Positions 1,604 to 35,158 are shown, counted from the first letter of the stretch. The stretch is 64,000 bases of DNA from Ignavibacteriota bacterium (GCA_025358305.1 JANYJZ010000012.1:9022-73021); one strand, 5' to 3'. The notes: generated from the sequence alone by a model not told the origin. Numbers and translations: made by a program.

Positions 1604-2206
1604 TCATCGCATGTACTTTTTGAGATGCTTGCGCATGCGGTTTGTTCCCGTGAACAAATGCCGCTTGACACTGCCTTCGGAACATTTCATCATCTCGGCG
1701 ATCTCCCGTATCTTGTAGCCTTCGAAGTGCCGCAATGTGAACACCATGCGCTGTTGGGGGGACAACAGTGCCATCAGTTGGTGAACATGCGTGAGAGCAT
1801 CGCTATCGATGACGTGTTGATCCGTCCCTTGCTCACGCTGAGAGGACCTCGCAACAACGGTCCGATCAGCGTGATCATGAGGAGGATCATCATCAAGAAG
1901 GATGTCCGACCGACGATTCTGCAGCTTCAGCTGAGAGAGGCAGACGTTCACCGTGATGCGGTGGACCCACGTCGAGAACTTGCTGCGAGACTGAAAATCA
2001 GATATCCCACGGTATGACCGCATAAAGACCTCTTGATAGACGTCTTTCGCATCATCAGAATTCTGCATATAACTGAGTGCAATGGCGAAGACCTGCCTCT
2101 CGCATTCCTGGAAGAGTTGGCTGAATGCCGCCATGCTTCCGAGGGCGGCTTGTTGAATCAATTCCGCCTCCGTTTGGTCGAGAGGCGGCTTCCTCGAATT
2201 TATCAT
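1604..2206 (-). CDS. ECF-family RNA polymerase sigma factor (sigma-70 regions 2 and 4)
   Basis: ORF track protein of 200 aa with region-2-like FSQLF..VFAIALSYMQNSDDAKDVYQEVFMRSYR and region-4 HTH (LSPQQRMVFTLRHFEGYKIREIAEMMKCSEGSVKRHL). Confidence 0.85.
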   Translation of the reverse strand: MINSRKPPLDQTEAELIQQAALGSMAAFSQLFQECERQVFAIALSYMQNSDDAKDVYQEVFMRSYRGISDFQSRSKFSTWVHRITVNVCLSQLKLQNRRSDILLDDDPPHDHADRTVVARSSQREQGTDQHVIDSDALTHVHQLMALLSPQQRMVFTLRHFEGYKIREIAEMMKCSEGSVKRHLFTGTNRMRKHLKKYMR

Positions 2207-2765: not shown

Positions 2766-5135
2766 TCACTCGTACCGGACGGAATCGACGGGATTGGCGA
2801 GCGCCGCCCTCACCGCATGGAGGCCGACGGTGAGGCAGGCAAGAACCACCGCCAGGAGCCCGGCGATGAAGAAATCGGCGACCCCGATATCGATCTTATA
2901 GGCGAAGCTCTGGAGCCATTTCGACATCATGTAGTAGGCGAGCGGCCAGGCGATGAGGTTGGCAAGGAGAACAAGTTTCAACAGATCCTTCGTCAGGAGC
3001 GTGACGATGCCGCCGATGGAGGCGCCCAGCACTTTGCGGATCCCGATCTCCTTCGTGCGCTGCACGACCGACTGCGACACGAGGCCCAGGAGGCCCAGGC
3101 ACGCGATGAAGACGCCGACAATGGTGAACCCGAGGACGATGGACCGAAGCCTCGTCTCGGCGATATAGAGGTTCCGGAAGCTCTCATCGAGGAAGTAGTA
3201 GTCGAACGGACGGCCCGGGGAGACGCGCTTCCACGTCTCCTCGACGAGCTTCAGCGCTTCGCGCTTGTCCCCGTGAGCGAGCCGCACCGAAATGTACTTG
3301 AAGAACGAGGGGTTCGGGTTGAGGTGTACAACGAGCGGCTCGATCTCAGAGTGAAGCGACGCGTAGTTGAAGTCCTTCACCACGCCGACCACCTCTCCCC
3401 CCCGCTTCAGCGACGGAAAATCGATATGCTTGCCCACCGGCGCATCCCAACCGAAGAGCGCCGCGGCCTTCTGATTGATCATGAACGCTCCGGACGTGTC
3501 CGAGGGATGGTCCCGGGAGAAGCTCCTCCCCTGCGCGATCTCGAACCCGAACACTTCCGCAAAATCCAGGTCCGCCAGTATCGTGCGGGGACCGTACGAC
3601 TTCTCGTGCGTCCCCTGGGGCTCCACCTCGGCGATGACGATCCTCTCACCCGGCACGCCCAAGGACGCCGTGACCGCCGCAATGGCGTGCTGCTTCAAGA
3701 GCTCCGATTTCAATGAGGTGTAGCGGTCCGCCGTGATGCCGCTGATCGGCATGACGAGGACCTGTTCGGTGTCGAGCCCCAGGTTTCTGGTCTGGATGAA
3801 GTCAAGCTGCCGTGATATCAGGAGCGACCCGATGATGAGTCCGATGGAGATCGTAAATTGAAGAACGACGAGCCCTTTGCGGAGGAGCGAGGCGGCCGAC
3901 GAGGGGGATTCCGCGCTGTAGCCGGAGCGCATGATCCGCACCGGACGGAACCGGGAGAGATAGAAGGCGGGATAGCTCCCCGCGCCGAGACCGACGACGA
4001 GGCTCACGCCGAGCACCGCCAGGAGCGGCAAGATCGTCCCGCCGCCGAAGAGCGACGCGTTGATGCCGGCGACCGCGTTGAACTCCGGCAGCATGAGCTC
4101 CACGAGTCCCACGGCGCAGAGCGAGGCAAGGAACGCGCTCAGGACCGACTCGCCGATGAACTGGGCGACGAGCTGCCCCTTGCGGGCGCCGAACGTCTTG
4201 CGCATCGCCACCTCACGGGCGCGCCGCATGGAACGGGCCGTCGAAAGGTTCACAAAATTAATGACCGCCAGGAAGAGAATGAAGAGCGCGACCGTCGAGA
4301 GGATATAGACGTACCGGATGCTCCCCTGTGGCTCGATCTCCTTCTCGCATTCGGAGTAGAGATGGATGTCGGCAAGCGGCCGGAGAGAGACCGCCAGGGA
4401 CGACGTATCGGGCGTCTGGGTCCGAAGCCTCATGATCTTCTCGATCGCGCCGGACATCGCGCCGAGATCGGCCCCGGGCCGCGCGAGAAGATACGTGTAC
4501 GCCAGCGACGCAGTCCACTGCATCTTTTCATCGACTTGGGCAATGGGGAACGAACTGAACGAGCCGAGAAAATCGAACGTGAAGTGGGACTGCGCCGGGA
4601 CGTTTTCCACGACGCCGGTGATCGTATAGTCGGCCGACCGGCCGGTCTGAACCTTCAGCGTCTTTCCGATAGGGTTCTCGCGGCCGAAGTACTTCTCCGC
4701 CATCGCCTGGGTCAGGACGAGGCTGTTCGGCGCTGTGAGGCACTTCTCCGGGTCGCCGGCAAGGAGTCTGTAGTGAAAGACCCGAAAGAGCGTCGAATCG
4801 GCGAAGAAGAACCGCTTCTCGGTGAACATCTGCTGTTCGTTCCCGATGAGCGCCCGGCTCACGCGGTTGAACCGGACGGCCTCCTCCACGTCGGGACGCG
4901 TCGAATTGAGAAACGGCGCGATCGCGAGCGGCGTCGCCGCCCAGTTGTCGACCTCGACGCGGTAGATCCGCCCCGCGTTCGGATCCTGGCGGTCGTAGCC
5001 CAGCTCGTAGAGCACGAAGAGCGAGATGAGGATGCAGCAGGCGATGCCGACCGCAAGTCCGGAGATCGTAATGAGCGAGTAGCCCCTGTGCTTCACGAGG
5101 TTGCGAAGGGCGATGTTGAAGTAGCTGCGAAACAT
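2766..5135 (-). CDS. ABC transporter permease, duplicated FtsX/MacB-type (paralog 1 of 3)
   Basis: ORF 2766..5183. Start set to the ATG at 5133-5135 (MFRSYFNIALRNLVKHRGYS), preceded by an AGGAGA RBS. The roughly 790 aa protein has an N-terminal TM, a periplasmic domain, four TM segments, and then the same module repeated. Its C-terminus is the FtsX-type ...PVDSVRYE. Confidence 0.85.
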   Translation of the reverse strand: MFRSYFNIALRNLVKHRGYSLITISGLAVGIACCILISLFVLYELGYDRQDPNAGRIYRVEVDNWAATPLAIAPFLNSTRPDVEEAVRFNRVSRALIGNEQQMFTEKRFFFADSTLFRVFHYRLLAGDPEKCLTAPNSLVLTQAMAEKYFGRENPIGKTLKVQTGRSADYTITGVVENVPAQSHFTFDFLGSFSSFPIAQVDEKMQWTASLAYTYLLARPGADLGAMSGAIEKIMRLRTQTPDTSSLAVSLRPLADIHLYSECEKEIEPQGSIRYVYILSTVALFILFLAVINFVNLSTARSMRRAREVAMRKTFGARKGQLVAQFIGESVLSAFLASLCAVGLVELMLPEFNAVAGINASLFGGGTILPLLAVLGVSLVVGLGAGSYPAFYLSRFRPVRIMRSGYSAESPSSAASLLRKGLVVLQFTISIGLIIGSLLISRQLDFIQTRNLGLDTEQVLVMPISGITADRYTSLKSELLKQHAIAAVTASLGVPGERIVIAEVEPQGTHEKSYGPRTILADLDFAEVFGFEIAQGRSFSRDHPSDTSGAFMINQKAAALFGWDAPVGKHIDFPSLKRGGEVVGVVKDFNYASLHSEIEPLVVHLNPNPSFFKYISVRLAHGDKREALKLVEETWKRVSPGRPFDYYFLDESFRNLYIAETRLRSIVLGFTIVGVFIACLGLLGLVSQSVVQRTKEIGIRKVLGASIGGIVTLLTKDLLKLVLLANLIAWPLAYYMMSKWLQSFAYKIDIGVADFFIAGLLAVVLACLTVGLHAVRAALANPVDSVRYE

Positions 5136-5201
5136 GGACGAGTCTCCTATCGGTAACTGTGTAATTGCGGGTGGTGCAACCAACCCCGCGTCTGCACGGC
5201 G

Positions 5202-7598
5202 CTATTCATATCGTAGCGATTCGACGGGATTGGCAAGGGCGGCCTTGACGGTCTGGACGCCCACGGTAAGCCACGCCGTACAGACGACCACCCCTCCGGC
5301 GAAGAGAAAGACGCCGGGATCGACCGGCTGATGATAGGCGAAGTTCTCCAGCCACGCGTTCATCGCGAAGTACGCGATCGGGACGGCGGCGCAGAACGAG
5401 AGGGCCACGAGCCAGGCGAAGTCCCTCGTCAGCATGAGGACGATATCGGGGACCGACGCCCCGAGGACCTTCCGGATGCCGATCTCCTTCGTGCGCTGCT
5501 CCGTCGTGAAGGAGATGAGGCCCAGAAGCCCGAGGCACGACAGGAGGATGGTCAATCCGGAGAAGACCCCGAAGACCTTCAACAGACGCGTCTCGGCACC
5601 GTACTGCGCTTCGACCTGCTGGTCCAGGAACGTGAAATCCAGCGGGTGGTTCGGGTCGAACCCCTTCCACTCCGACCGGAGAACGTCCAATGCCTGGTCC
5701 ATGCGGTCCGGGTTCGCGCGCATCATGAGAAAATCCTTCCCTTCCGGGCTCATCTGGAAAATGGCGGGCGCGATCTCCTCGTAGAGCGGCCGGAAATGGA
5801 AGTCCTTGATCACGCCCACGATGGTCAATTGCCGCCCGTCGTCAGGGCCCATGAACCACTCGAGCGACGCTCCGATCGCCGATTGCGGACTTAGCCACCC
5901 GAACCGGCGCACCGCGGCCTCGTTCACGACGATCGATCGAGTAGAGTCGCTCGGGAACTCGGGCGAAAAGAACCTCCCCGCGGCGAGCGTCATGCCGAGC
6001 GCGCCGGGGAAGTCATAATCGGTATGATAGGTATAGATATCCTGCTCGTTTTGTGTGTCCGCGCGCCGTGCGACCGCGATGCGCGACGCCGGATCGGCCG
6101 GCGTCCCGGAGGCGCAGGTCACGCTCCGTATCTCGGAGTGCCGCAGGAGCTCGGTCTTCAGGGTGTTGCAGTTCTCGCGGTCGTCGTCGGTCTTCAAGTG
6201 CACGACAAGGAGCTGCTCCTTGTCGAATCCGAGCCTCTTGTTCCGGATGAACTCCATCTGGGCGCTCACGATCGACGTGCAGGAAAGAAGGACGATCGAG
6301 AGCGTGAACTGCCCCACCACCAGCACCTGGCGAAGCCTGAGGCCCCGCGGTCCGCTCTTCGTGCCCCCTTTGAGGACGTCCGCCGGCTGGAACCGGGAGA
6401 GGACGAAGGCGGGATAGCTTCCCGCTCCGACGCCGACCAGGAGGGCAAGCGCGAAGAAGCCCGCCGCCACCGTCCAATCCTCGCCGAAACGAAGGGAGAG
6501 GTCCTTCTGCGCGAGTTCATTGAACGCCGGCAGCGCAAATTCGATCAGCGCGATCGCCACGCACGCGGCCGCAAGGGAAAGCAGCAGCGACTCGGCCAGG
6601 AACTGGAAGATGAGGTGGTGGCGCAACCCTCCCATGACCTTCCGGATCCCGACCTCCATCGCGCGCATCTGCGATCGCGCCGTCGCCAGGTTCATGAAAT
6701 TAAAGCAGGCCACCAGGAGAATGCCGCACGCAAGCGCCGACAGGAGATACATGTAGGCGACCGGACCGAGCTTCCCGACCGACTCACGCGCGTCGGCATG
6801 AAAGTGGATGTCGGCCAGCGGCTCCAGTCCCATCGAGATGCTCGGGAAATCCGACGGCGCGTCGGCGTAGTGCTTCTCGACGAACCCTGGCAGGCGGGCC
6901 TGGAGCGCTCCGAGCGACGCGTCCTTCTTCAGAAGGACGTACGTCGGATAGCTGAAAAAGAACCAGTTGGTGAGCCGCTGCGGGCCGAGGTCGGCGAAGG
7001 GGAGGATGAAGTCGGGCCTGAGGTGCGAGTTTGACGGGATATGTTTCAGTACGCCGGTCACCTGATAGTCGGCCGCTCCCCGCTCGATCCTGAGCGTCTT
7101 GCCCAGGGGATCCTCGTCGCCGAAGTACTTTTTCGCCATCTCCGCGCTTACGAGCACCGACTGCGGCGAACCAAGGGCAGTCGCGGGGTTCCCCTCCTGG
7201 AAGGGAAAGTCGAAGATCTCAAAGAGGCTCGGATCGGCGTAGTAGACTCCCGGTTCATAGAAGAGCTTGTCCCCCTGCCGGACGAGGATCGACGTCCAGG
7301 GCTCTGCGACGCGGGCGGTATTTTCGATCTCCGGCGACTCCGCGGCGAGTGCCGGACCCATCGGCGCGGCCGAGCGCGCGATCGGCGTCTCCTCCCCGCT
7401 GCGCCTGATCGTCAGCGCAAGGCGGTAGATCCGGTCGGCGTTCCGATGGAAGCGGTCATAGCTCACTTCCTGGCGGACGTAGAGGAGAATGAGCGCGGCG
7501 CACGCCATCCCGACCGCCAGGCCGGCGACATTGATGATCGTGTAGCCCTTTTGGCGGCGCAGATTGCGAAGGGCGACCTTGAGGAAACTCGTGAGCAT
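5202..7598 (-). CDS. ABC transporter permease, duplicated FtsX/MacB-type (paralog 2 of 3)
   Basis: ORF track protein of 798 aa. The N-terminus (MLTSFLKVALRNLRRQKGYT) parallels paralog 1, and the C-terminus is ...ANPVESLRYE. Confidence 0.85.
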   Translation of the reverse strand: MLTSFLKVALRNLRRQKGYTIINVAGLAVGMACAALILLYVRQEVSYDRFHRNADRIYRLALTIRRSGEETPIARSAAPMGPALAAESPEIENTARVAEPWTSILVRQGDKLFYEPGVYYADPSLFEIFDFPFQEGNPATALGSPQSVLVSAEMAKKYFGDEDPLGKTLRIERGAADYQVTGVLKHIPSNSHLRPDFILPFADLGPQRLTNWFFFSYPTYVLLKKDASLGALQARLPGFVEKHYADAPSDFPSISMGLEPLADIHFHADARESVGKLGPVAYMYLLSALACGILLVACFNFMNLATARSQMRAMEVGIRKVMGGLRHHLIFQFLAESLLLSLAAACVAIALIEFALPAFNELAQKDLSLRFGEDWTVAAGFFALALLVGVGAGSYPAFVLSRFQPADVLKGGTKSGPRGLRLRQVLVVGQFTLSIVLLSCTSIVSAQMEFIRNKRLGFDKEQLLVVHLKTDDDRENCNTLKTELLRHSEIRSVTCASGTPADPASRIAVARRADTQNEQDIYTYHTDYDFPGALGMTLAAGRFFSPEFPSDSTRSIVVNEAAVRRFGWLSPQSAIGASLEWFMGPDDGRQLTIVGVIKDFHFRPLYEEIAPAIFQMSPEGKDFLMMRANPDRMDQALDVLRSEWKGFDPNHPLDFTFLDQQVEAQYGAETRLLKVFGVFSGLTILLSCLGLLGLISFTTEQRTKEIGIRKVLGASVPDIVLMLTRDFAWLVALSFCAAVPIAYFAMNAWLENFAYHQPVDPGVFLFAGGVVVCTAWLTVGVQTVKAALANPVESLRYE

Positions 7599-7665
7599 CT
7601 CTTATCCTTTTGCTGAAGCAGTACACAATGTCATTCTCACCGCGCGCCGGTCGGCTGCGGAGGGG

Positions 7666-10038
7666 CTACTCATACCGAAGCGCTTCGACCGGATTCGAGG
7701 TCGCCGCCCGGAACGACTGCACGCCGACCGCGGCAAGCGCCGCAACGAGCGCCGCGGCGCCTGCCACGAGGAACGCCCACCAGGGCAGAGTCGTGCGGTA
7801 GGCGAAATTTTCCAGCCAGGCGTTCATGACGTACGCGGCGACCGGCCAGGCGAAGAGGTTCGCGAGCATGATCAGCCCGACGTACTCCCGCGAGAGCATG
7901 CCGATGATCCCCGCTACCGACGCGCCCAGGACCTTCCGGATCCCGATCTCCTTCGTCCGCTGGCGCACGGAGAGGGTCACGAGGCTCAGAAGGCCCATCG
8001 AGGCGATGAGGATCGCGACGAGCGAGGCCCAGCCGAGCATCGACCGGAATTGCTCCTCCCTCCTGTACGCCCGGTCGAACGTCTCGTCCAGAAAGAAGTA
8101 GTTGAACGGTGAGGAGGGCATGACCCTCGCCCAGACCTCCCTGATGGCGCCGAGTTGCGCCCGCATGTCCCCCGCCCGCACCCTGATCGAGACATCCTGG
8201 AAGCGGTCGAGCCAGGCCCGGTTCGTGATGATGAGCGGCTCGATCTTGTCGTGAAGCGTGGCGTAGTGAAAGTCCTTCACGACGCCGATCACAACGTGGT
8301 CGCCGTTCCGGCGGATCGTCTTGCCGACCGGATCTTTCCAATGCAGCTCCCGGGCCAGCGTCTCGTTGATGAGATATCCGTCCTTTTCGGCCGCGGACGC
8401 GCCGGTGAACGAGCGCCCCTGCGACATCGCGATCGCGTATGTCGACAGGAACGCCTCGTCCGCGTCGACGACGTGGATCATCATCGGGGAGAGGCTTCCC
8501 TGCGGGAAGTAGCCGTTGCTCGTGAACCCGTCGTGGGGCACATCGGAGGACGCGCAGACCGAGACGACCCCGGGGAGCTGCGCCAGCGCCGACTTGAGGG
8601 GTCCGTACCGCCCCTGGGCCTCGCCGCCGACGAGCGGAAGGACGAGGAGGTTGCTCCTGTCGAACCCGAGGTCCTTCGACCGTACGAACTCGAGCTGCCG
8701 TCCGATGACGATCGTGCCGATCACGAGCCCAATCGAGATGGCGAACTGGAGGACGACGAGGATGTTCCGGGATGTCCGCTTGAACGAGGCGGTCCCCCCT
8801 TTGAGCGTCCGCACGGCGTCCATCGACGAGAGGTAGAGGGCCGGATAGAGGCCGCTCGAGAGCGACACGACGAGAGAGATGCCAAAGAGGGTCCCGAGCA
8901 TCGGGACCGTCAGCCAAGAGCCCGGCGAGAGATCCCTCCCGGTGAGTTCGCCGAACGCGCCGGAGAGGAGTTCCAGCAGGAGGAGCGCAAGGGCGACGGC
9001 GATGCCGGAGAGAAGGAACGACTCGCCGAGGAACTGTGCGATGAGGCTCCACCTGCCCGCCCCAAGGACCTTCCGGATCCCGACCTCCCTCGAACGGGGG
9101 ACCGCCTGGGCGACCGCCAGGTTGACGAAGTTCACGCAGGCGATGAACAGGATGAGGAGGGCGATCGCGCCGAAGATGTAGAGGTCGCCGCGCAACGAGG
9201 CTGAATCCGCGTTGTAGCGGAGGTGGACCTCTTTGAGCGGCTGGAGATACGGCTCGTAGGAGACGCCGATGCCGGAGAGTTGTTTGTTGATGCTCTTCCA
9301 CATGAGATCGGGGAAGCGCCGTTCGACGGCCTCAGGCTGGGTGTGCTCGGCGAGAAGGACGTACGTGATGTACTGGTTCCCGCCGTTCCAGTCGAGAAAG
9401 AGGTCCGGCAGCCGGTAGAGCGTCGAGAACGAGACGAGCGCCTCGAACTGGATCTGCGAGTTGGCCGGAGGGGGATCCACCACGCCGGTCACCGTATAGG
9501 GGTTCTCGTTGTCGAGTTTCACGACCTGGCCCACCGGGTCGCTCCCGCCGAAAAGCCTGCCGGCGAGATCCCTCGTCAGGACGATCGAGAACGGCCGGGC
9601 AAGCGCGGTCCTCGCGTCGCCGCGAGCGAGGCTGAAGGAGAAGAGATCGAAGAGCGTCGAATCGACGAACGCGATCCCTTCGACCTTGAGCGCTTCGACG
9701 CTCGTGCGCGAGACGTAGGCCGGCCGGAGCGTCGAGAGTCTCGCGTAGTTCTCCACCTCCGGGAACTCCGCTTTCATCGCCGGACCGAGCGGGGGTGTGA
9801 ACTCGGGGTTGTCCCCCGTGACCGCGCCCCGTTCCTTCGATTGGACCGACACGCGGTAGAGCCGGTCCGCCTTGGCGTGGAACCCGTCGTAGCTCAGTTC
9901 AAACTGGATATAGAGGACGATGAGAAATGCGATCGCCAGGCCGACGGAGAGCCCGGCGACGTTCGTGACCGCATAGCCCGTGCGGTTCCGCAAGGAGCGC
10001 ACCGCGGTGCGAACGAAGGGTCCGATCTGCCAGTTCAC
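7666..10038 (-). CDS. ABC transporter permease, duplicated FtsX/MacB-type (paralog 3 of 3)
   Basis: ORF track protein of 790 aa with a GTG start. FVRTAVRSLRNRTGYAV parallels the other two paralogs, and the C-terminus is ...SNPVEALRYE. Confidence 0.8.
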   Translation of the reverse strand: MNWQIGPFVRTAVRSLRNRTGYAVTNVAGLSVGLAIAFLIVLYIQFELSYDGFHAKADRLYRVSVQSKERGAVTGDNPEFTPPLGPAMKAEFPEVENYARLSTLRPAYVSRTSVEALKVEGIAFVDSTLFDLFSFSLARGDARTALARPFSIVLTRDLAGRLFGGSDPVGQVVKLDNENPYTVTGVVDPPPANSQIQFEALVSFSTLYRLPDLFLDWNGGNQYITYVLLAEHTQPEAVERRFPDLMWKSINKQLSGIGVSYEPYLQPLKEVHLRYNADSASLRGDLYIFGAIALLILFIACVNFVNLAVAQAVPRSREVGIRKVLGAGRWSLIAQFLGESFLLSGIAVALALLLLELLSGAFGELTGRDLSPGSWLTVPMLGTLFGISLVVSLSSGLYPALYLSSMDAVRTLKGGTASFKRTSRNILVVLQFAISIGLVIGTIVIGRQLEFVRSKDLGFDRSNLLVLPLVGGEAQGRYGPLKSALAQLPGVVSVCASSDVPHDGFTSNGYFPQGSLSPMMIHVVDADEAFLSTYAIAMSQGRSFTGASAAEKDGYLINETLARELHWKDPVGKTIRRNGDHVVIGVVKDFHYATLHDKIEPLIITNRAWLDRFQDVSIRVRAGDMRAQLGAIREVWARVMPSSPFNYFFLDETFDRAYRREEQFRSMLGWASLVAILIASMGLLSLVTLSVRQRTKEIGIRKVLGASVAGIIGMLSREYVGLIMLANLFAWPVAAYVMNAWLENFAYRTTLPWWAFLVAGAAALVAALAAVGVQSFRAATSNPVEALRYE

Positions 10039-10096
10039 CGGCGCCCCGGCGTTGTCCTCGGCATGCGCGATCGCCCGCGCGTGCGGCGGCCCCCGG

Positions 10097-10786
<690 letters not shown>

Positions 10787-10837
10787 CTATCGCTCCTTGA
10801 GAGTGTATGGTGTGGCGGCGGGTCCGCGGGGGCCGAA

Positions 10838-11164
10838 TCAGGACCCCAGGGACCGCCGGAGATCGTTCAGCATATGGACGACAGGGTCCGCCTGGGTTTT
10901 GTTGAGTGTCGCAGCGTCTCTGGCCCGGACGAGCTGCTGTTCGAGGAGGCGGATCGATCGCTGCGCTTCGGCCAGGCATGTGCGCGAGTCCTTCCCTTCG
11001 TATCCCCGGGCGATCGTATCGAGGAGCGAGATCGACAAATGGCGGATCTCCCGGGCGACCGGTTCGGGAAGGGCCGAGCGCGACGAGGCGTCGGTCACGT
11101 CCAGGAGCACGCAGACGAGCGACCGGGCGATCTTCCAGCTTTCCGTCTCCCTGAAATCGGTCAC
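10838..11164 (-). CDS. small helical protein, possibly four-helix-bundle (23S rRNA IVS-like) family
   Basis: A 108 aa ORF with a GTG start sits between the HlyD and ATPase genes on the same strand. Its helical pattern (..SWKIARSLV.. ..ISLLDTIARGYEGKDSRTCLAEAQRSIRLLEQQLVRARD) loosely resembles TIGR02436-type four-helix-bundle proteins, which are often embedded in efflux operons. The family assignment is tentative. Confidence 0.4.
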   Translation of the reverse strand: MTDFRETESWKIARSLVCVLLDVTDASSRSALPEPVAREIRHLSISLLDTIARGYEGKDSRTCLAEAQRSIRLLEQQLVRARDAATLNKTQADPVVHMLNDLRRSLGS

Positions 11165-11200
11165 GGGGGTATTCCCTTCGAGATCCCGCCCTCCGGCGGG

Positions 11201-12508
11201 CTACTTCTTCAGGACGAGCTTCTCGTTGTCGCCGAAATTGTCGTAGCTCGACGTGATGACCTGCTCTCCCGGCTCGAGCCCTTCCAAGACCTCGAACGCC
11301 TGGGGGTTTTGGCGGCCGAGCTTCACGCTCCGCTTCACCGCGAACGACCCCGACCGGTCGACGACGTAGACCCACTGTCCCCCCGTCTTCTGGTAGAATC
11401 CTCCCCTCGGCACCAGGAGCGCTTCCGTCAGGTCGCCGAGCTCGAGCCGGACCTGGAGGGTCTGGCCGCGCCGGATCCCCTGGGGCGGCTTCCCGGCGAA
11501 CTGGAGGTCGACGTCGAAGCGGCCGTTCTGCACCTCCGGGTAGACCTTCGTGATCTTCAGGGAGTCGGTCGACGCGCCGAGCTCGAACTCGCCGGTCTGG
11601 CCCGGGTTGATGCGGGCGATGTAGAACTCGTCGATCGAGGCCCGGACCTTGAACGCGTCCAGGACGTCGATCTGGCCCAGTCGCTGGCCCGGGGACTTCG
11701 ATTCGCCGATCTCCGCATTGAGCGAGGTGAGCTGACCGCTGATCGGGGCCCTGAGGGTCAGGTTCTCCAGGTTCTGCTTCGTCATCTGGAGGTTCTCCTG
11801 GAGGCGCTTGATGGACTCGTCGAGCTGGACGAGCTGCGTGGCTCTGAGCACCGAATCCTGGCGGAAGTTCTCCCGGGCCAGGACCCGCCGGCCGAGCCAG
11901 TAGGTGTACTCCTCCTGGGTCTGCTTGAAGTCCTGGTCCGCGATGAGGCTCTTCTCGGCGAGCACCGAGTCGCGCCGGAAGAGCAGCCTTACCCGATCGA
12001 CCTGGTACTCCACGTCCGAGAGCTGCGTCTTGACGCTGATGGTGTTCTGCTCGATCGACAACCGGCGGTTCTCCGCGTTGTTGATCTGCTCGTACGAGAG
12101 CGCCTCGCGGTACATGACGTCGAGCTGGAGGTTCGCGTTCGCGAGCTTGATGATCGGATCCCCCTTCTTGACGAACTCGCCGGCGTCGACGAAGCGCTTC
12201 TCGACGCGCCCCCCCTCGATCGCGTCAAGGTAGAAGGTCTGGATCGGGAGTATCGTGCCGCTCACCGGCGTGTACTCCTGGAAGGGGGCCCGGCTCACCG
12301 TCGAGATGGTGATCTTTTCGGCCTCGACATTCAGGCGCGAGCTGCGGTCGGCGAAGATGAAGCTGTAAATCAGGACAAACAGCAGCGCGACGGCGCCTGA
12401 GACGTAGAGGATCCGCGTCCGGGTCCAGACCTTTTTTTCGAGCTTCCGGTCCATGCCTGACTGGCTCAGGTCGGTACCATGCTGCTTCTGATCGTTCATG
12501 TGGTTCAT
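11201..12508 (-). CDS. HlyD-family efflux/secretion periplasmic adaptor (membrane fusion protein)
   Basis: The 435 aa protein has an N-terminal TM (ILYVSGAVALLFVLIYSFIF), a long coiled-coil region, and lipoyl and beta-barrel segments. It is the first gene of the exporter operon. Confidence 0.85.
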   Translation of the reverse strand: MNHMNDQKQHGTDLSQSGMDRKLEKKVWTRTRILYVSGAVALLFVLIYSFIFADRSSRLNVEAEKITISTVSRAPFQEYTPVSGTILPIQTFYLDAIEGGRVEKRFVDAGEFVKKGDPIIKLANANLQLDVMYREALSYEQINNAENRRLSIEQNTISVKTQLSDVEYQVDRVRLLFRRDSVLAEKSLIADQDFKQTQEEYTYWLGRRVLARENFRQDSVLRATQLVQLDESIKRLQENLQMTKQNLENLTLRAPISGQLTSLNAEIGESKSPGQRLGQIDVLDAFKVRASIDEFYIARINPGQTGEFELGASTDSLKITKVYPEVQNGRFDVDLQFAGKPPQGIRRGQTLQVRLELGDLTEALLVPRGGFYQKTGGQWVYVVDRSGSFAVKRSVKLGRQNPQAFEVLEGLEPGEQVITSSYDNFGDNEKLVLKK

Positions 12509-12585
12509 CGCGCCTGCAAGTGTGGGCCGCCCCTTCCGACGCTCTCAAAAGACGCATCCAAGGGGAGGCGATTCCCCCAAATAGG

Positions 12586-12601
12586 TGCAATTTCCACGCC
12601 A
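12586..12601 (-). promoter_or_regulatory. sigma-54 (RpoN) -24/-12 promoter candidate driving the hlyD-ABC-3xFtsX operon
   Basis: The reverse complement of 12586-12601 is TGGCGTGGAAATTGCA. This matches the consensus TGGCACG-N4-TTGCA with correct GG-N10-GC spacing. It lies about 75 nt upstream of the hlyD ATG (12508) and divergent from the NtrC-type regulator gene. Confidence 0.55.
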
Positions 12602-12788
12602 GCCGGAAATCCTTCAATGGGGCCCTATTTCGGTGAAACCTTTCCGCCAACCGTCCGTTTTCATTACAGTAGGGTGTCTGTTATCGTACACCCCTGAAGA
12701 CCGCTTCCGGCCCGACCCAAGTCAGGCGGAATTCCTATATTGCACGTGCCGGCAGTTCCGCTACCACATTTACGACGCGATTTTTATA

Positions 12789-14168
12789 ATGCCACTCAAT
12801 AGGCTCGGCAACATTCTCGTCATCGACGACGATCCGGACGTGCTCCTGGCGGCGAGGCTCTTCCTCAAGCAGCATGCCGGCGAGGTCTCCGTCGAAAAGA
12901 ACCCGGCAGCGATCCCGGAGCTCATGAAGAACGGGAAGTACGACATCATCCTCCTCGACATGAACTTCACGCGCGACACCGGGAGCGGTCAGGAGGGGTT
13001 CTACTGGCTCGACAGAATCCTCGAGCACGACCCCCTGGTCGTCGTCGTCCTCATCACCGCCTACGGCGACGTCGACATGGCCGTCCGCGCGATCAAAGCG
13101 GGAGCGAGCGACTTCGTCCTCAAGCCGTGGCAGAACGAGAAGCTCCTGGCGACCCTTTCGGCCGCCATGTCCCTGCGGCGCTCCAGAGCGGAGATCGAAC
13201 AGCTCCGGTCGCGGGGGCGTCAGCTCGGCGAGGATCTCGACCACCGGTTCGGCGGGCTCATCGCCGGTTCGGCGGCGATGCGCGAGGTCCTCGGGACGAT
13301 CGAGAAGGTCGCCGGCACGGACGCCAATATCCTCATCCTCGGCGAGAACGGCACCGGGAAGGAACTTGTCGCCCGGGAGCTCCACCGCCGGTCCAATCGG
13401 GCCCAAGAGCCGTTCATCAGCGTCGATCTGGGGGCGGTCCCGGCGGGGCTCTTTGAGAGCGAACTCTTCGGCCACGTCAGGGGAGCCTTCACGGACGCCC
13501 GGGGCGACCGCGCGGGACGCTTCGAGACCGCATCGGGCGGGACGCTCTTTCTCGACGAGATCGCGAACCTCCCGCCGGAGCTCCAGGTGAAGCTCCTCGC
13601 CGTCCTCCAGAACCGCGTCGTTACACGGATCGGCTCGAACGCCGTCACGCCGATCGACATCCGCCTCATCTCGGCCACGAACAGGCCGCTCGCGGAGCTC
13701 ACCGAGGGCAAGCACTTCCGCCCCGACCTTCTCTACCGCATCAACACCGTGGAGATCCATCTCCCCCCGCTTCGGGAAAGGCGGGAGGACATCGCGCTCC
13801 TCATCGAGCATTTCGTGTCGCACTACGGCGGCAAGTACCAAAAGACGGGCATGCGCATCCCGCCCTCCACCATGGCGCGGCTCGAGCGCTACGACTGGCC
13901 CGGGAACGTCCGGGAGCTCGAGCATGCGGTCGAACGGGCCCTTATCCTCAGCGACGAGGACGTCCTCCGGCCGGAGGATTTCTTCCTCGCGGCCCCGGGG
14001 AAGCCGGCCGACCGATCCGCCCAGCCCGGCGCCAAGCTCGCCGAGGTCGAACGCGCCGCGATCCAAAAGGCGCTTGCGAAGCATGGCGGCAACATCACCC
14101 AAACCGCGCGCGAGCTGGGCCTGACGCGCACCGCACTCTACCGCCGCATACAAAAGTATGATCTCTAG
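12789..14168 (+). CDS. sigma-54-dependent Fis-family response regulator (NtrC-like): receiver + AAA+ sigma-54 activation domain + Fis HTH
   Basis: ORF 12585..14168. The ATG at 12789 gives MPLNRLGNILVIDDDPDVLL.. The receiver has DMNF. The AAA+ domain has GENGTGKE and the GAFTDA motif (sigma-54 interaction), ESELFGH and RERREDI. The C-terminal HTH is QTARELGLTRTALYRRIQK. Confidence 0.9.
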   Translation: MPLNRLGNILVIDDDPDVLLAARLFLKQHAGEVSVEKNPAAIPELMKNGKYDIILLDMNFTRDTGSGQEGFYWLDRILEHDPLVVVVLITAYGDVDMAVRAIKAGASDFVLKPWQNEKLLATLSAAMSLRRSRAEIEQLRSRGRQLGEDLDHRFGGLIAGSAAMREVLGTIEKVAGTDANILILGENGTGKELVARELHRRSNRAQEPFISVDLGAVPAGLFESELFGHVRGAFTDARGDRAGRFETASGGTLFLDEIANLPPELQVKLLAVLQNRVVTRIGSNAVTPIDIRLISATNRPLAELTEGKHFRPDLLYRINTVEIHLPPLRERREDIALLIEHFVSHYGGKYQKTGMRIPPSTMARLERYDWPGNVRELEHAVERALILSDEDVLRPEDFFLAAPGKPADRSAQPGAKLAEVERAAIQKALAKHGGNITQTARELGLTRTALYRRIQKYDL

Positions 14169-15501
14169 ATCGTTCCGGCTGCAGATCATCGTTCGGATCG
14201 CGATCCTCGCCCTTTCGCTCGGCGCGGCGATCGCGCTCGCGCTCGAGACGCAGCTCTACGCGACCGCGGCCCTCGCGGCGCTCCTGGCCGCCGTGCAGAC
14301 CTGGTCGCTCGTCCGGTTCGTCGAGCGGACGAACCTGGAATTGACGCGCTTCCTCCGGTCCGTCCGCTACGCCGATTTCTCACAGAGCTTCTCGTCGAAA
14401 GGCCGGGGCCGGTCGTTCGACGAGCTCAACGCCGCCTTCACCGAGGTGGTCGACGCCTTCCAAAAAGCCCGCGCCGACAAAGAAGAGCACGCGCAGTACT
14501 TTCAGATGGTCGTTCAGCACATCGGCATCGGCCTCATCGCGTTCACGCCGGAGGGGGAGGTGACGCTCTTCAATACGGCCGCCAAGCGCCTCCTCCAGAT
14601 GCCCCAGCTCCGGACGCTCGACGGGCTTACGGCGCTCGGCGCGGATCTCGCCGGCACGCTTCGGTCCATGCGCTCCGGCGACAGGTCGTTCGTACAGGTG
14701 GAGGTCGGCGGCGAGCAACTGCAGCTCCTCGTCTATGCGCGGGAGATGAAGCTGCGGGAACGGCACATGACGCTCCTGTCGATACAGAATATCCGCACGG
14801 AGCTTGACGAGAAGGAGATCGAGGCGTGGCAGAAGCTCATCCGGGTGCTGACGCACGAGATCATGAACTCCATCACGCCGATTTCGTCGCTCGCCTCGAC
14901 CGTTCGCGGCATGCTCGCGGACGGGCCCCGGGACGGCGCATGGACGCCGGAGTCCGCGCGCGACATCCGGAGCGCCATCGAAACGATCGAGAAGCGAAGC
15001 CAGGGGCTCCTCCACTTTGTCGAGGCGTACCGGAGGCTCATGCGGACACCTTCGCCGGTGTTCCGGATCGTGCGGGTGTCGGAGCTGTTCGAACGGGTGG
15101 GGCGGCTCATGGAGAGCCGGTTCAAGGAGAGCGGCGTCTCGTTCTCGGCGCACGTGGAGCCCGAAAGTCTCGAGCTCACGGCCGATCCGGAGCTCATCGA
15201 GCAGGTTCTCATCAACCTCCTGGTGAACGCGCTCGAAGCGGCGCACGGGCAGGGAGAAAAGACGATCCGGCTCGTGGGCCGGATGGGAGATCAGGGCCGG
15301 GTGTTCGTCGAGGTGAGCGACAACGGACCCGGGATCCCGAAGGAAGTGCAGGATAAACTCTTTATACCGCTCTTCACCACGAAGCCGAACGGCTCCGGGA
15401 TCGGGCTGAGCCTCTCCCGGCAGATCATGCGTCTCCACCGGGGTTCGATCTCCGTCCGTTCGGAGCCCGGGGTTGCGACGACGTTCGTCCTGCGGTTCTA
15501 A
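14158..15501 (+). CDS. sensor histidine kinase, intramembrane-sensing type (2 TM, no sizeable periplasmic domain)
   Basis: The 447 aa protein overlaps the regulator stop by 11 nt. It has two N-terminal TM helices separated by a short loop. The H-box is LTHEIMNSITPI. The HATPase_c motifs are present (N: LLVNALEA; G1: DNGPGIP; G2: GSGIGLSLS). Confidence 0.85.
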   Translation: MISRSFRLQIIVRIAILALSLGAAIALALETQLYATAALAALLAAVQTWSLVRFVERTNLELTRFLRSVRYADFSQSFSSKGRGRSFDELNAAFTEVVDAFQKARADKEEHAQYFQMVVQHIGIGLIAFTPEGEVTLFNTAAKRLLQMPQLRTLDGLTALGADLAGTLRSMRSGDRSFVQVEVGGEQLQLLVYAREMKLRERHMTLLSIQNIRTELDEKEIEAWQKLIRVLTHEIMNSITPISSLASTVRGMLADGPRDGAWTPESARDIRSAIETIEKRSQGLLHFVEAYRRLMRTPSPVFRIVRVSELFERVGRLMESRFKESGVSFSAHVEPESLELTADPELIEQVLINLLVNALEAAHGQGEKTIRLVGRMGDQGRVFVEVSDNGPGIPKEVQDKLFIPLFTTKPNGSGIGLSLSRQIMRLHRGSISVRSEPGVATTFVLRF

Positions 15502-15511
15502 CTGTAACGGC

Positions 15512-17626
<2,115 letters not shown>

Positions 17627-17710: not shown

Positions 17711-18037
17711 CTATGCGGCATGTACGGCATCGAGTACCGCTTTGGGATGCTTCGCGACGATGCATAACAGGATCCTCGCCGGGCCTTCTGGTTTGCGCCT
17801 TCCTTGTTCCCAATTCCGAAGTGTTCCGAGGCTGATGCCCAAGAGCATGGCAAACTTCTCCTGCGTAAGGCCCAGCCGCCGTCGGATACCCGGTACATCG
17901 GGATCATCCATGACGGACCTGCGGCTCGGGGCCTTCCTACCCTTGAGGATGGCGCCGGCCTGCTCAACGCTGCTCAAAAGCTCATCAAATGTCGACTTCT
18001 TCAATTCTTCTCCTCGTGAGGGGGAATGTCTCCGCAT
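17711..18037 (-). CDS. HTH XRE-family transcriptional regulator, HigA2/NadS (COG2944)-type
   Basis: ..STFDELLSSVEQAGAILKGRK..DVPGIRRRLGLTQEKFAMLLGISLGTLRNWEQGRRKPEGPARILLCIVAKHPKAVLDAV closely follows the COG2944 antitoxin-like regulator pattern. No cognate RelE/HigB-like toxin ORF is evident adjacent to it. It lies in the low-GC tract. Confidence 0.75.
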   Translation of the reverse strand: MRRHSPSRGEELKKSTFDELLSSVEQAGAILKGRKAPSRRSVMDDPDVPGIRRRLGLTQEKFAMLLGISLGTLRNWEQGRRKPEGPARILLCIVAKHPKAVLDAVHAA

Positions 18038-18052
18038 TCACCTAGTGGGAAA

Positions 18053-18069
18053 ATACGCCATTGGCGTAT
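18053..18069. promoter_or_regulatory. perfect 17-bp palindrome ATACGCCATTGGCGTAT, candidate operator of the HTH regulator
   Basis: Read directly from the sequence. It lies 16 nt upstream of the HTH gene start codon (18035-18037), in the 174-nt gap between the primase-helicase stop and the HTH gene. Confidence 0.45.
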
Positions 18070-18210
18070 CGTAGTCAAGTCGATAAAAGGGGAATCCTTG
18101 GATCCAGAGGCCTTGAATCGATCAATGACCCCACGATCCATCGTTGAGATCGGGTAATTCGCAGGGCAGATTCTTCAGGCAAACAGCAATGTTCCAAAGT
18201 GGTTATCCCT

Positions 18211-20439
18211 TTAGAATGGTAAATCGGGTTCATATTCCGGCATCGGTCCGATTTTCGCATGCATCTTCTTGTAGTATCGTTCTCGTTGTTTGTACTGCTT
18301 TTCCAGGAATGGAATGTTTTTGTCTCGATAATCGATGATCCGTCTTTCTATACCAACGTCCCGTAATCTGCCGATGTATTGCATCAGCTTTCCTTCGAAT
18401 GAAAAGGGAAAAGCGAGAACGAGACATGATATTCCTTGAAAATCAAACCCTTCACCAAAGAACTGGCCGGTCGAAAGCACAGCACGGTAATGGCCATCTT
18501 CAATTTGCTTGAACTTCGATTTTCGGGATGGGGGAGAATCATCACCAGAAATTACAATCGTCTCGCACCTTCCCTTGAGATATAGATCGAGAACTTCAAG
18601 ATGTTCCTTTCGTTCGGAGAGGACGAGCACCTTTTTCCCCTGTTCGGTCTCTCGCAGAATGTCCTCAACGATCATTTGATTGCGGCCTGAGTCGAAGCAA
18701 ACGACCTTCGCCAGCAGCTGAAAGAGGTCGGTCCGGAACTTGAACGGGATAGCAAGCTTTGTTTGGCGGACGATCACTTCTGGAATCGAGCTCGATTTTA
18801 GGGAGGCGGGCATGAAGTCGGATGCTTCAACCCGCGCGACGATCTCGCCGATATACAGAAAGATCAAATCCTCGTCATTATGTTTGCGGTGAGGCGTTGC
18901 CGTGAGTCCATAAAGATATCGCGGATTAAGTTGGCTCACAACCTTTCGAAATGTCGACGCCGGAATATGGTGGCACTCATCGACGACGACAGTACCGAAC
19001 TGACTCTGCAGATCGTCGAAGCTACTCTTCCGCCCTAGACTCTGTAGCAGTGCTACCGTTATCTCACGACCCACCTTCTTCCTCGCTCCGGAGCATTCCC
19101 CGATATGTGCCTTGTCGATACCGAGAAAAGACTGTATCCGTTCAATCCACTGATCCATGATCTGTTTACGATGTACAAGAATCAGCGCGGGCAGGCCTCT
19201 TCTTGCGATTAGTTCCAGCCCCATAATCGTCTTACCGCTTCCGGCGGGTGCAACAATGACGCCCTGTTCTACACCCAAAGCAGACTGCACCGCCGTTTGC
19301 TGGGCCTTCGTGAGATTTATTGAACTTTTGAACCCAGCGCGAGGATAGTCCGGGCGGGCTGCACGAATCTCGTGTGCGATTCCTTGATCTCGCAAGAAAC
19401 TCAATAGCTTCTCAAGGAATCCTCTTGGTAGGAGTACATTACCTTCCGACTCGTCTATCAACTTGAAGTATTTTTGTACCTTGTACACAGACTTACCGAT
19501 TCGGCGCTTGGAAAGATACTCTGTGTTTAAGAAATTCAATTCCTCTTTCAGAAACTGTATGAGCCCGGATCTGAGTTGTGAGCGAGCAAGAACGAGCTGC
19601 TTTCCGACAGAAATTACCAACGGGCCACCTTGAGACTCGGCCTGCGAATAATTCCCCTGCTTCTGCGAAAAGAGCTTCATATAAATCTCATCAAGCTCGC
19701 CAGGAAGATAGCGCCTTGCTTCTTCCAAAAACCTCCATTGATCCGGGTACGGATTTCCTGACTGTAAATCGATGAAGACCGAATTCCCCATAGCGACGGA
19801 ACCGCCTTGCATTGGCAGTGCGATCAGATTCCCGAATCCATGCGCTGAAACCGAATCCTGGTTAGGAAAGAGGCGGTCAAAACTCACCTCTTTTTCGAAT
19901 TCAGAAATGTCGAAAGCCCTTCGAATGAGTTCAAGCCCAATCCGCCGACTTTTCTGACAAGGATATGGCTCATCGAAGAACAACCAGATGTGTCCGCCGT
20001 TGCCTGATCGGGAACGTTCAAGATAGGTGGTGAGTCCGAGCTGACTACACTCGCCGATGAGCATACCTGCTTCTGCCTTCCAGTTTGCACCATCGAAGTC
20101 AGCAGCAAGAAAAACAGACTCATTTGATCTCAACACCGGATAGATTCCGACAACGAGAGACCCGAGAAGATGCTTCCGCACGACTTCAGGTGTAAGAGGC
20201 AGCAACCGCTTATTTTCAAAATTCTTCAGCGAGCCCCCGAGCCGCTTGTGCGATATGAACTCTTCCCAATTGAAATCGTACGCGGGGCTGTATCCAGATC
20301 GACCGTCTTTTTCCCACCGACGGGCGTACGCATCTGATCGACCTCGGAAAAGGGTCATCAACAGTTTGATTTGTCGATCAGTTGGAGGGATCATGGAGGC
20401 ATTTTCATCGATTCCTTTGGCTCGGTCATCTCGAGACAC
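18211..20439 (-). CDS. fusion protein: N-terminal archaeo-eukaryotic primase (AEP/Prim-Pol)-like domain + C-terminal SF2 DEAH-box helicase
   Basis: The 742 aa protein starts at GTG, or alternatively at ATG Met16. The N-terminal half carries LFRGRSDAYARRWEKDGRSGYSPAY, the acidic DxD motif (FLAADFDGANW), sxH (SGNGGHIWLFF) and FGNLIALP. These are AEP catalytic-motif analogues. The C-terminal half has Walker A (VAPAGSGKT), DEAH-like (VVVDECHH), motif III (GLTATP) and helicase-C (LSTGQFFGEGFDFQ.. GRLRD). The coding GC is about 45% against about 65% in the flanks. Confidence 0.8.
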   Translation of the reverse strand: MSRDDRAKGIDENASMIPPTDRQIKLLMTLFRGRSDAYARRWEKDGRSGYSPAYDFNWEEFISHKRLGGSLKNFENKRLLPLTPEVVRKHLLGSLVVGIYPVLRSNESVFLAADFDGANWKAEAGMLIGECSQLGLTTYLERSRSGNGGHIWLFFDEPYPCQKSRRIGLELIRRAFDISEFEKEVSFDRLFPNQDSVSAHGFGNLIALPMQGGSVAMGNSVFIDLQSGNPYPDQWRFLEEARRYLPGELDEIYMKLFSQKQGNYSQAESQGGPLVISVGKQLVLARSQLRSGLIQFLKEELNFLNTEYLSKRRIGKSVYKVQKYFKLIDESEGNVLLPRGFLEKLLSFLRDQGIAHEIRAARPDYPRAGFKSSINLTKAQQTAVQSALGVEQGVIVAPAGSGKTIMGLELIARRGLPALILVHRKQIMDQWIERIQSFLGIDKAHIGECSGARKKVGREITVALLQSLGRKSSFDDLQSQFGTVVVDECHHIPASTFRKVVSQLNPRYLYGLTATPHRKHNDEDLIFLYIGEIVARVEASDFMPASLKSSSIPEVIVRQTKLAIPFKFRTDLFQLLAKVVCFDSGRNQMIVEDILRETEQGKKVLVLSERKEHLEVLDLYLKGRCETIVISGDDSPPSRKSKFKQIEDGHYRAVLSTGQFFGEGFDFQGISCLVLAFPFSFEGKLMQYIGRLRDVGIERRIIDYRDKNIPFLEKQYKQRERYYKKMHAKIGPMPEYEPDLPF

Positions 20440-30597: not shown

Positions 30598-31849
<1,252 letters not shown>

Positions 31850-31857
<8 letters not shown>

Positions 31858-33079
31858 AGCGCAAGGCCTCCACGGGATCCATCTTGGCGGCGCGGTATGC
31901 CGGCATGAACCCGGAGGTCAGGCCGACGATGAGCGACACCATGATCGCGATGAAGACGATCGACAGGGGCATCGTCGCCCCGAGATCGAATGCGGAGTTC
32001 ATCAACTGCACGATGATGAACGCCAGAAGGAGTCCGATGAGCCCGCCGATGAGGCAGATGACCGCGGCCTCGATGAGGAACTGCATGAGGATCGTCCGGC
32101 GCCGGGCGCCGATCGCCTTCCGAATGCCGATCTCCTTCGTCCGCTCGGTGACCGAGACGAACATGATGTTCATGATGCCGATGCCGCCGACAAAGAGCGA
32201 CAGCCCCGTGATGAAGAGCCCGATCGCGCCGACGACGAACGTAAACTGCCCGAACGTTTCGGTGAGGATCTCCTGGGAGTTGATGCTGAAGTTGTTGACC
32301 TTGCCGGGGGTGAGCCGCCGGAGCGAGCGCATGATCCCTTCGATCTCGACCTTCGCATCTTCCATCTTCGGGATCTCCGCGACCCTGACGTTGATCGTCA
32401 CGAAGGCGTGGTTGCCGAAATGGCTCTGGAACGAATGGATGGGGACGAACACGCGCGAATCGGTCGTGAACTGGCCGAACATGCCGCCTTGCTTCTCATA
32501 GACCCCGAGGACGGTGTAGGGGAACCCGCCGACCTTCAGCTCCTGGCCGATCGGGTCGGCGTTCGGGAAGATCGTCTCGGCGATCGTCGCCCCGATGACG
32601 CAGACCGGGCGGCCGCCGTTCGACTCCTCGGCGGAGAAGAAGCGTCCGTCGATGTCCTTGTTCCCGGAGGCGTTGTTGTACTGATCGGTCGTGCCGGTGA
32701 CGAACGCGTCCTCGAGCGAATGCTTGCTCGTCGAGACCTTCGCCCTCCGGACAACGACGGGAGCGACGGCCGTCAGGAGCGAGGCTTTGCGCTCCAGGAC
32801 GGGGGCGTACTCGAGCTTCATGTCGGGGCGGTTCCGAATGAGGTCCCAGTCGTCGTTCGACACCCACGGAAATTTCTGGACGTACATGACGTCGGTCCCG
32901 AACGCCTTCGCGCTCCGGTCGAACGCCGCGTTCAGGCCGTCGATGGCGGTCGCCATCCCCGTGACGGCGAAGATGCCGATGATGATCCCCAAGGTCGTCA
33001 AGACCGAGCGCATCTTGTTGCCCCGGATCGCCCGGAAGGCGATGATGAGCCCTTCTTTGAGTTCGGTCAGAAAGTACAT
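31850..33079 (-). CDS. ABC transporter permease, MacB/FtsX family (second, non-identical permease)
   Basis: The 409 aa protein has the same architecture as the previous permease. It overlaps the downstream permease by 8 nt. Confidence 0.85.
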
Positions 33080-33089
33080 AGGCGCCCCC

Positions 33090-33818
<729 letters not shown>

Positions 33819-33868
33819 GACGTCTGCCTTTATGAAGTGCGCTGGTGAATGTTCTCTCGTAACGGGGC

Positions 33869-35134: not shown

Positions 35135-35158
35135 ACGTTCCCTCCGGGAATGCCGGGA

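Follow-up and report, generated by a model that had tools for sequence, protein, structure and literature searches.

Positions 2766-15501 of a 64,000-nt stretch of DNA from an Ignavibacteriota bacterium (GCA_025358305.1 JANYJZ010000012.1:9022-73021; the whole stretch is called the window here) raise the question of how an exporter that has three permeases for a single ATP-binding cassette (ABC) ATPase is switched on, and which function it may fulfil. According to open reading frame (ORF) listing and profile searches, the minus strand of this locus encodes, in the order of transcription, a MacA-like adaptor, a four-helix ORF of 108 amino acids, one ABC ATPase and three fused permeases. A divergent operon on the plus strand encodes an NtrC-type regulator followed by a histidine kinase. 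We consider it fairly probable that this locus specifies an inducible MacAB-like (Type VII ABC) envelope exporter under a dedicated sigma-54 two-component switch. Our confidence is high for the predicted regulatory wiring, moderate for a presumed role in efflux or detoxification and low for any statement on the signal of the kinase.

The original prediction for this DNA, which was made from the sequence, had proposed an adaptor, a small ORF, one MacB-type ATPase, three permeases with duplicated FtsX modules and a divergent regulator-kinase pair. ORF listing together with Pfam and NCBIfam searches recovered all of these genes at or close to their proposed places. The regulator start, however, had been put at 12585 and was corrected: the gene begins with the ATG at 12789, as it is called in public assemblies, and thus the divergent intergenic region measures 280 bp. 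The gaps between the exporter genes (18-66 nt) are consistent with one operon. The features of the locus are as follows:

2766-5135, minus strand: permease 1, third in the operon; 789 amino acids from the ATG at 5135, with the ORF reaching a TTG at 5183
5202-7598, minus strand: permease 2, second in the operon; 798 amino acids; Pfam and NCBIfam matches
7666-10038, minus strand: permease 3, first after the ATPase; 790 amino acids, GTG start
10097-10786, minus strand: ABC ATPase of the MacB/LolD/FtsE/DarD type; 229 amino acids; PF00005 with E 9e-36
10838-11164, minus strand: four-helix-bundle ORF; 108 amino acids; weak 23S_rRNA_IVP match
11201-12508, minus strand: MacA-like membrane-fusion (periplasmic adaptor) protein; 435 amino acids; HlyD_3 and HlyD_D23 (Pfam)
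12509-12575, minus strand: predicted 5' untranslated leader, from promoter geometry
12586-12601, minus strand: predicted sigma-54 -24/-12 promoter TGGCGTGGAAATTGCA; consensus match and conservation
12651-12669, minus strand: second conserved upstream block CTGTAATGAAAACGGACGG, from the intergenic alignment of relatives
12674-12691, unstranded: palindrome GTGTACGATAACAGACAC of 18 bp; intergenic alignment and enrichment
12789-14168, plus strand: sigma-54 activator response regulator; 459 amino acids; REC, AAA+ and Fis-type helix-turn-helix (HTH)
14158-15501, plus strand: histidine kinase; 447 amino acids; 11-nt overlap with the regulator gene

For permease 1 the ATG at 5135 fits the N-terminus of the family and most likely is the start.

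The module is real and widespread in Bacteroidota and allied phyla. The kinase has at least 7,998 relatives at E <= 1e-20 (8,000 candidates scored), many of which are full-length and 45-70% identical. We fetched 80 genomic loci of such relatives, and linkage was counted in the 50 loci that had at least 5 kb of upstream sequence (related loci carry L numbers below). The loci originate from Bacteroidota (including isolates of Marinilabiliales such as Anaerophaga, Labilibaculum and Plebeiibacterium), Ignavibacteria, Latescibacterota, KSB1, Zixibacteria, Cloacimonadota, Kryptoniota, Gemmatimonadota and others. Here, we found that in 42 of the 50 loci the genes divergent from the regulator-kinase pair encode MacB-type exporters, and that L081, L088 and L090 repeat the layout of the window with three fused permeases. 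Some Latescibacterota loci carry permeases, with neither adaptor nor ATPase beside the sensor pair.

The predicted promoter TGGCGTGGAAATTGCA has its GG at 12600-12599 and its GC at 12588-12587 in canonical spacing, 77 nt upstream of the adaptor ATG. When compared with TGGCAC-N5-TTGCW, 9 of 11 positions match and both dinucleotides are intact with 10 nt between them, but two positions depart from the consensus (TGGCGT vs TGGCAC). At two mismatches the sigma-54 consensus gave 12 matches in the window against 16 expected, so that a single site is not above chance. The match might therefore be coincidental, with the exporter running on a housekeeping-type promoter and the sensor pair regulating something else. 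A scan of the intergenic region and of the operon 3' end for sigma-70-type promoters and terminators, which does not model Bacteroidota promoters and is blind to them, yielded nothing useful and leaves room for such an arrangement. In four of the closest relatives fetched (kinase 67-70% identical), however, the element is conserved in position and aligns as CTGGC..G.A..TTGCA. We also compared 52 related loci that have a defined divergent intergenic region with shuffled sequences. GG/GC-anchored matches of at least 9/11 pointing toward the transporter were present in 21 of these regions (shuffle mean 0.83, maximum 4), and TGGCAY occurred in transporter orientation in 38 loci against 5.3 in shuffles. 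When sites were anchored on TGGCAY only, the unselected -12 G was found in 37/38 and was followed by C or T. It is because of position and conservation in relatives, and not by the single match, that we count the -24/-12 element as significant. This conservation, the orientation-specific enrichment across phyla and the conserved palindrome at enhancer distance make coincidence very improbable. The sigma-54 element that had been proposed upstream of hlyD is thus retained at 12586-12601, insignificant alone and conserved and enriched among relatives. Transcription would start near 12575, 12 nt downstream of the -12 GC, which agrees with the start proposed before.

Sigma-54-like sites that point toward the regulator gene (at least 9/11) were also observed, in 9/52 loci (for instance L004, L010, L012, L030 and L034) against 0.83 in shuffles. 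Their presence suggests that the sensor pair may regulate its own expression in some lineages; in the window no such site points to the regulator gene. Within the predicted leader of the adaptor gene there is an inverted repeat of 10 bp (12526-12535/12560-12569, 90% complementary, 24-nt loop), which is not conserved in the aligned relatives. No rpoN was found among the window ORFs scanned against Pfam, a scan that covered only a part of the ORFs beyond about 39 kb.

In the intergenic alignment with relatives the block around the palindrome is better conserved than the promoter itself. The palindrome (12674-12691) lies 90 bp upstream of the -24 element, and an unbiased scan of palindromic half-sites recovered GTGT-N10-ACAC in 14 of 55 intergenic regions, where 0.2 were expected. 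With at most one mismatch the pattern was present in 31/55 regions (shuffle mean 4.9, maximum 11), and the half-site pattern TGT-N12-ACA was not enriched in the intergenic regions. The consensus reads GTGTnCG-N4-CGnACAC and is mostly located 80-105 bp upstream of the -24 element, which is the classic position for an enhancer-binding protein. When the 64 kb were searched with GTGTNCGNNNNCGNACAC, the palindrome was the sole match with one mismatch, and four other matches with two mismatches occurred at chance rate. The second block CTGTAATGAAAACGGACGG is conserved in L081, L083 and L085, and L090 (kinase 59% identical) carries it as TGTAACGAAAACGGACG. Considering the strong co-conservation with the regulator across phyla, the palindrome is likely the upstream activator sequence to which the NtrC-type regulator would bind, and the CTGTAATGAAAACGGACGG block is probably a weaker second activator site.

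The regulator itself has the Pfam domains Response_reg, Sigma54_activat (E 2e-63), AAA_lid_14 and HTH_8. A loop of the GAFTDA type (GAFTDA, GSFTDA or GAYTDA, with D at position 5) is present in 74 of 76 regulator orthologues, and the Gly-to-Asp change of the textbook GAFTGA loop, which contacts sigma-54, is family-wide. These domains and this loop bear out the sigma-54 activator that had been postulated, and the conservation of promoter and upstream palindrome across phyla supports NtrC/sigma-54 control of the exporter operon. An independent computational study from 2025 (PMC12316311) reports that predicted sigma-54 promoters are enriched upstream of FtsX-type permeases of COG0577, both in Bacteroidia and in Opitutia, and calls this the first link of sigma-54 to this ABC family. 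In the literature we found no experimentally characterised sigma-54/NtrC-controlled MacB/FtsX exporter, this computational study being the only relevant one, nor any experimental work on the module, its kinase or enhancer.

NtrBC, AtoSC, ZraSR and NtrYX share with the window the REC-AAA+-Fis-HTH activator, the sigma-54 promoter and, about 100 bp upstream, an enhancer with a palindrome. The window kinase aligns with AtoS from the PAS domain onward (with the AtoS model from residue 106), and JGI annotates relatives of the kinase as NtrY. The scores stayed below the NCBIfam equivalog cut-offs (AtoS 149 vs 646, AtoC 362 vs 714, ZraR 333 vs 760, NtrX 307 vs 600), and the window family differs from these systems in its GAFTDA instead of GAFTGA loop, in a kinase with two transmembrane (TM) helices and no periplasmic domain, and in its target, an ABC exporter and not nitrogen, acetoacetate or zinc genes.

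Each of the three permeases consists of two MacB_PCD (PF12704) and two FtsX (PF02687) modules, and they share 36-38% of their residues with each other. Hydropathy suggested eight TM segments, arranged 4+4. Permease 2, which was modelled with AlphaFold (pLDDT 82.6, pTM 0.75), consists of two repeats (TM1-4 and TM5-8); one periplasmic domain is placed between TM1 and TM2 and a second between TM5 and TM6, and a short coupling helix follows TM2 as well as TM6. There is no linker TM pair in this model; TM4 and TM5 are joined by some 15-25 cytoplasmic residues. The best solved structural match was E. coli YbbP 9GE6 (E 2e-19, 14% sequence identity), followed by MacB halves, LolCE and BceB, and MacB halves can be superposed on either half of the model. 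Since a 2018 review of the MacB family lists fused forms only with linker helices, the direct fusion with eight TM helices represents a topological variant.

In both halves of 33 sequences, among them the three paralogues of the window, the coupling-helix motifs R..E(V/I)G(V/I)RK..GA do not vary. This is compatible with a single ATPase for the three permeases, an arrangement that had already been proposed for this locus. The label 'ADOP-like', which had been attached to the permeases, holds only loosely. The duplicated FtsX architecture and the length of about 800 amino acids agree with ADOP (TIGR03434), but the scores of 277, 354 and 316 bits are below the cut-off of 622.3. ADOP members are typically 'orphans' that lack an adjacent ATPase, whereas the window permeases have an ATPase (10097-10786) and an adaptor in the same operon.

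The best NCBIfam matches of the ATPase were DarD, the MacB nucleotide-binding domain, FtsE and LolD, all below the equivalog cut-offs. The adaptor exceeds the cut-off of TIGR01730 (134.6 bits vs 94.9), has MacA 3fpp and 5nik as closest solved sequences (E 5e-15) and carries one N-terminal TM helix (residues 33-51). MacAB-TolC of E. coli, Acinetobacter baumannii and Aggregatibacter actinomycetemcomitans resembles the window system in the FtsX-fold permease, whose periplasmic core domain is placed between TM1 and TM2, in the MacB/LolD-type ATPase and in the MacA-like adaptor with its N-terminal TM helix. In contrast, the window permease is a single-chain fusion of two modules, its ATPase is a separate protein common to three permease genes, the operon is devoid of a TolC gene and regulation involves a sigma-54 two-component system; macAB of Salmonella and E. 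coli is controlled by PhoPQ (PMC5985334). MacB, LolCDE and YbbP are the top fold matches of the permease 2 model. YbbAP is likewise built from a separate ATPase (YbbA bound 2:1) and a fused, pseudo-symmetric permease, which carries two periplasmic domains and two coupling helices. However, YbbP has ten TM helices including the linker TM5-6, whereas hydropathy and AlphaFold indicated eight and no linker for the window permeases; moreover, YbbAP has a single permease gene, pairs with the hydrolase TesA and involves no membrane-fusion adaptor. A linker pair that brings the total to ten TM helices, and the binding of two copies of the ATPase, are common to YbbP and BceB (PMC12646458, PMC5985334).

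The four-helix ORF between adaptor and ATPase matched PF05635 (23S_rRNA_IVP) with E 6.8e-4, below the Pfam cut-off, and PRK12275 with E 9e-6. A PF05635 gene occupies the same position in L088 (6647-7000, 31% identity), and in L001 an ORF at this position is similar to it by BLAST match. The ORF is absent from most loci, including L081 and L090. We therefore consider it probably not a core part, since only two of the examined related loci (L001, L088) have a similar ORF there; it probably belongs to the 23S rRNA intervening sequence protein/Avd-like family. Many related operons contain a second, more divergent ATPase gene (L090 17824-18483; also L010, L013, L015, L020 and others), whereas the window has one ATPase. 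The second ATPase of L090 is 56% identical to that of the window, and some such genes end the permease array.

The original prediction had likened the locus to BceRS-BceAB of Bacillota, with which it shares an FtsX-family fused permease, a separate ATPase and an adjacent two-component system. According to this explanation a kinase that has no ligand input of its own docks on the transporter and reads its activity, so that expression follows demand via NtrC/sigma-54. The AlphaFold model of the kinase (helices 2-30 and 35-71, loop of about 4 residues) and hydropathy agree on two TM helices. The claim of two helices with essentially no periplasmic domain was thereby upheld, a minimal external loop is also found in BceS, and a loop of this length leaves no periplasmic ligand site. 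The TM and juxtamembrane segments are well conserved (D73, F74, Q76 and F78 invariant), the pair is tightly and divergently linked with FtsX-type transporters, and BceS requires BceAB to sense (PMC5985334), all of which would fit such flux sensing.

The second part of the claim, namely that the kinase lacks a cytoplasmic sensor domain, did not stand. The order of elements is TM1, a 4-residue loop, TM2, a HAMP-like helix-loop-helix (residues 56-121, without Pfam detection), PAS, DHp (216-294) and the catalytic (CA) domain (303-446). Residues 124-211 (about 122-212) were modelled as a PAS-type unit of two strands, a helical part and three strands at pLDDT 70-85. The longest fold matches were PAS/LOV-DHp-CA kinases (YF1 4gcz, SB2F1) and the HAMP-PAS kinase VicK, with which the family profile of the kinase aligns over positions 40-449, and Pfam PAS models match 12-14 of 23 kinase orthologues (best E 2.8e-5). 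A cytoplasmic sensor domain had itself been named as evidence against intramembrane sensing, and the model, the fold matches, the VicK profile and the Pfam matches in orthologues all point to one. With its HAMP-like and PAS domains the enzyme is not a sensor-less kinase like BceS. Its resemblance to membrane-anchored kinases with a cytoplasmic PAS domain (ArcB-like or WalK-like) is at least as great as that to BceS, and the PAS domain weakens the Bce analogy. Further differences concern the permease, since BceB has ten TM helices, one external domain and no adaptor, whereas the window permeases have eight, two domains and an adaptor, and the regulator, since BceR is of the OmpR type and works with sigma-70.

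Comparison with the three loci of identical layout provided additional information on this point. In L081 the ATPase is 89% identical to that of the window, the adaptor 82%, the regulator 76% and the kinase 67%, but no pair of permeases exceeds 40%. For L088 the corresponding values are 88%, 74%, 70% and 61%, with permeases at 31-38%, and for L090 they are 86%, 69%, 70% and 59%, with partly orthologous permeases. The first permease of L090 is a 62% orthologue of the window's second, its middle permease has no counterpart, and its third is a 48% orthologue of the window's first in operon order (permease 3, 7666-10038), and thus sits at another position of the array. One-to-one orthology with the window permeases was thus found neither for L081 nor for L088 and was only partial and reordered for L090. 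Since orthologues of permease 2 with 55-62% identity are present in several lineages, the permease types are old and were sorted and rearranged on a chassis (regulator, adaptor and ATPase) that stayed conserved. This lends support to the previously expressed idea that three permeases expand the substrate range.

Bce transporters and kinases co-evolve (PMC5985334), whereas permeases of the window type are swapped on a conserved kinase. Such swapping speaks against an interface that kinase and permease have co-evolved as in Bce modules, which is hard to reconcile with permeases that are exchanged and reordered among relatives whose kinases are 59-67% identical. Some loci have no neighbouring transporter at all. 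Taken together, we regard Bce-like flux sensing as unlikely. A Gram-negative version in Bacteroidota and allied bacteria of the FCB group, which we also rate as unlikely, would have the minimal-loop kinase dock on the pump chassis (the ATPase or the TM helix of the adaptor) and not on the permease. The kinase would report load via sigma-54, and the permeases would be exchangeable cassettes shuffled between genomes.

The same architecture of adaptor, ATPase and fused permease set is known from DarBCD (NF038008, NF038010, NF038007), and after ADOP the best named NCBIfam matches of our genes were DarB, DarC and DarD. The exporter might accordingly be dedicated to secretion of a self-made peptide, lipid or glycolipid, as are DarBCD (darobactin) or DevBCA, and the sensor pair might time its production. 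However, the scores of DarB (84-142 vs 700 bits), DarC (222 vs 450) and DarD (281 vs 375) are far below the curated equivalog cut-offs. Genes for darobactin biosynthesis are absent, the operon has no biosynthetic genes on its flanks in the window, L081, L088 or L090, and variable arrays of several permeases fit broad specificity better than a single cargo. We consider dedicated secretion decidedly unlikely.

The inducible envelope exporter that we favour would operate in the following way. The kinase would autophosphorylate on a signal perceived in the membrane or at its cytoplasmic face and pass the phosphate to the NtrC-type regulator. The regulator would then oligomerise on GTGTnCG-N4-CGnACAC and the adjacent weaker site about 90 bp upstream and spend ATP on opening the complex of sigma-54 RNA polymerase at the -24/-12 promoter. 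One transcript would supply the MacA-like adaptor, one ATPase and three alternative permeases. As a fused pseudo-dimer with two coupling helices, each permease should bind two copies of the shared ATPase (2:1). Three different pumps on one energising and adaptor chassis may thus expel a wider range of compounds from the membrane or periplasm, with an outer-membrane duct supplied from elsewhere.

Several observations weigh against this reading. Apart from the two consensus departures and the chance-level frequency of the lone promoter match, the sensor pair has no adjacent transporter in 8 of the 50 loci, and L089, which was outside this count, has no nearby transporter either. The exporter operon contains no gene for an outer-membrane factor or TolC-like protein. 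Finally, the pump could export a self-made product instead of detoxifying.

Elsewhere in the window, on the minus strand at 30598-36514, there is a second, canonical MacAB-TolC-like operon, which lacks both a neighbouring sensor pair and an upstream sigma-54 match. Its genes are:

35159-36514, minus strand: OEP/TolC-like gene
33869-35134, minus strand: HlyD adaptor
33090-33818, minus strand: ABC ATPase
31850-33079 and 30598-31857, minus strand: two single-module FtsX permeases with four TM helices

The OEP gene of this operon could supply the outer-membrane duct for the sigma-54 operon.

Downstream of the last permease a gap of 560 nt (2207-2765) separates the exporter operon from a gene for an extracytoplasmic function (ECF) sigma factor (1604-2206, minus strand). 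In this gap no permease pseudogene or gene remnant, no Rfam match and no convincing terminator was detected, and an Rfam scan of the window gave no matches. On the other side, a low-GC island (17711-20439, GC 0.48-0.50 vs about 0.62-0.65 nearby) lies between the genes of two Ser/Thr protein kinases (15512-17626 and 20510-22774, both minus strand), which are paralogues (36% identical) and carry TPR arrays at the C-terminus. The gene at 15512-17626 is convergent with the histidine kinase; it was rejected as a part of the system, as it is not conserved beside the sensor pair in related loci. The island encodes a protein of 742 amino acids in which a ResIII/DEAD helicase is fused to an archaeo-eukaryotic primase domain of the TOTE conflict system (PF22548, E 6e-75), and it contains a small ORF (17711-18037) that looks like an XRE-type HTH protein by eye only. 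It is probably an acquired defence element. Type IX secretion system (T9SS) sorting domains are also encoded in the window, in agreement with an origin from Bacteroidota or the FCB group.

Every component of the module comes from a known family, and it is their combination that has not been experimentally characterised in the literature we searched. The module is encountered very often in Bacteroidota, Ignavibacteria, Latescibacterota, KSB1, Zixibacteria and related phyla, and the palindrome together with the -24/-12 element provides a testable regulon signature. A single ATPase and adaptor chassis that accepts divergent permeases constitutes a natural experiment, and in Bacteroidota of environmental and medical relevance the module is a candidate system for inducible resistance or export.

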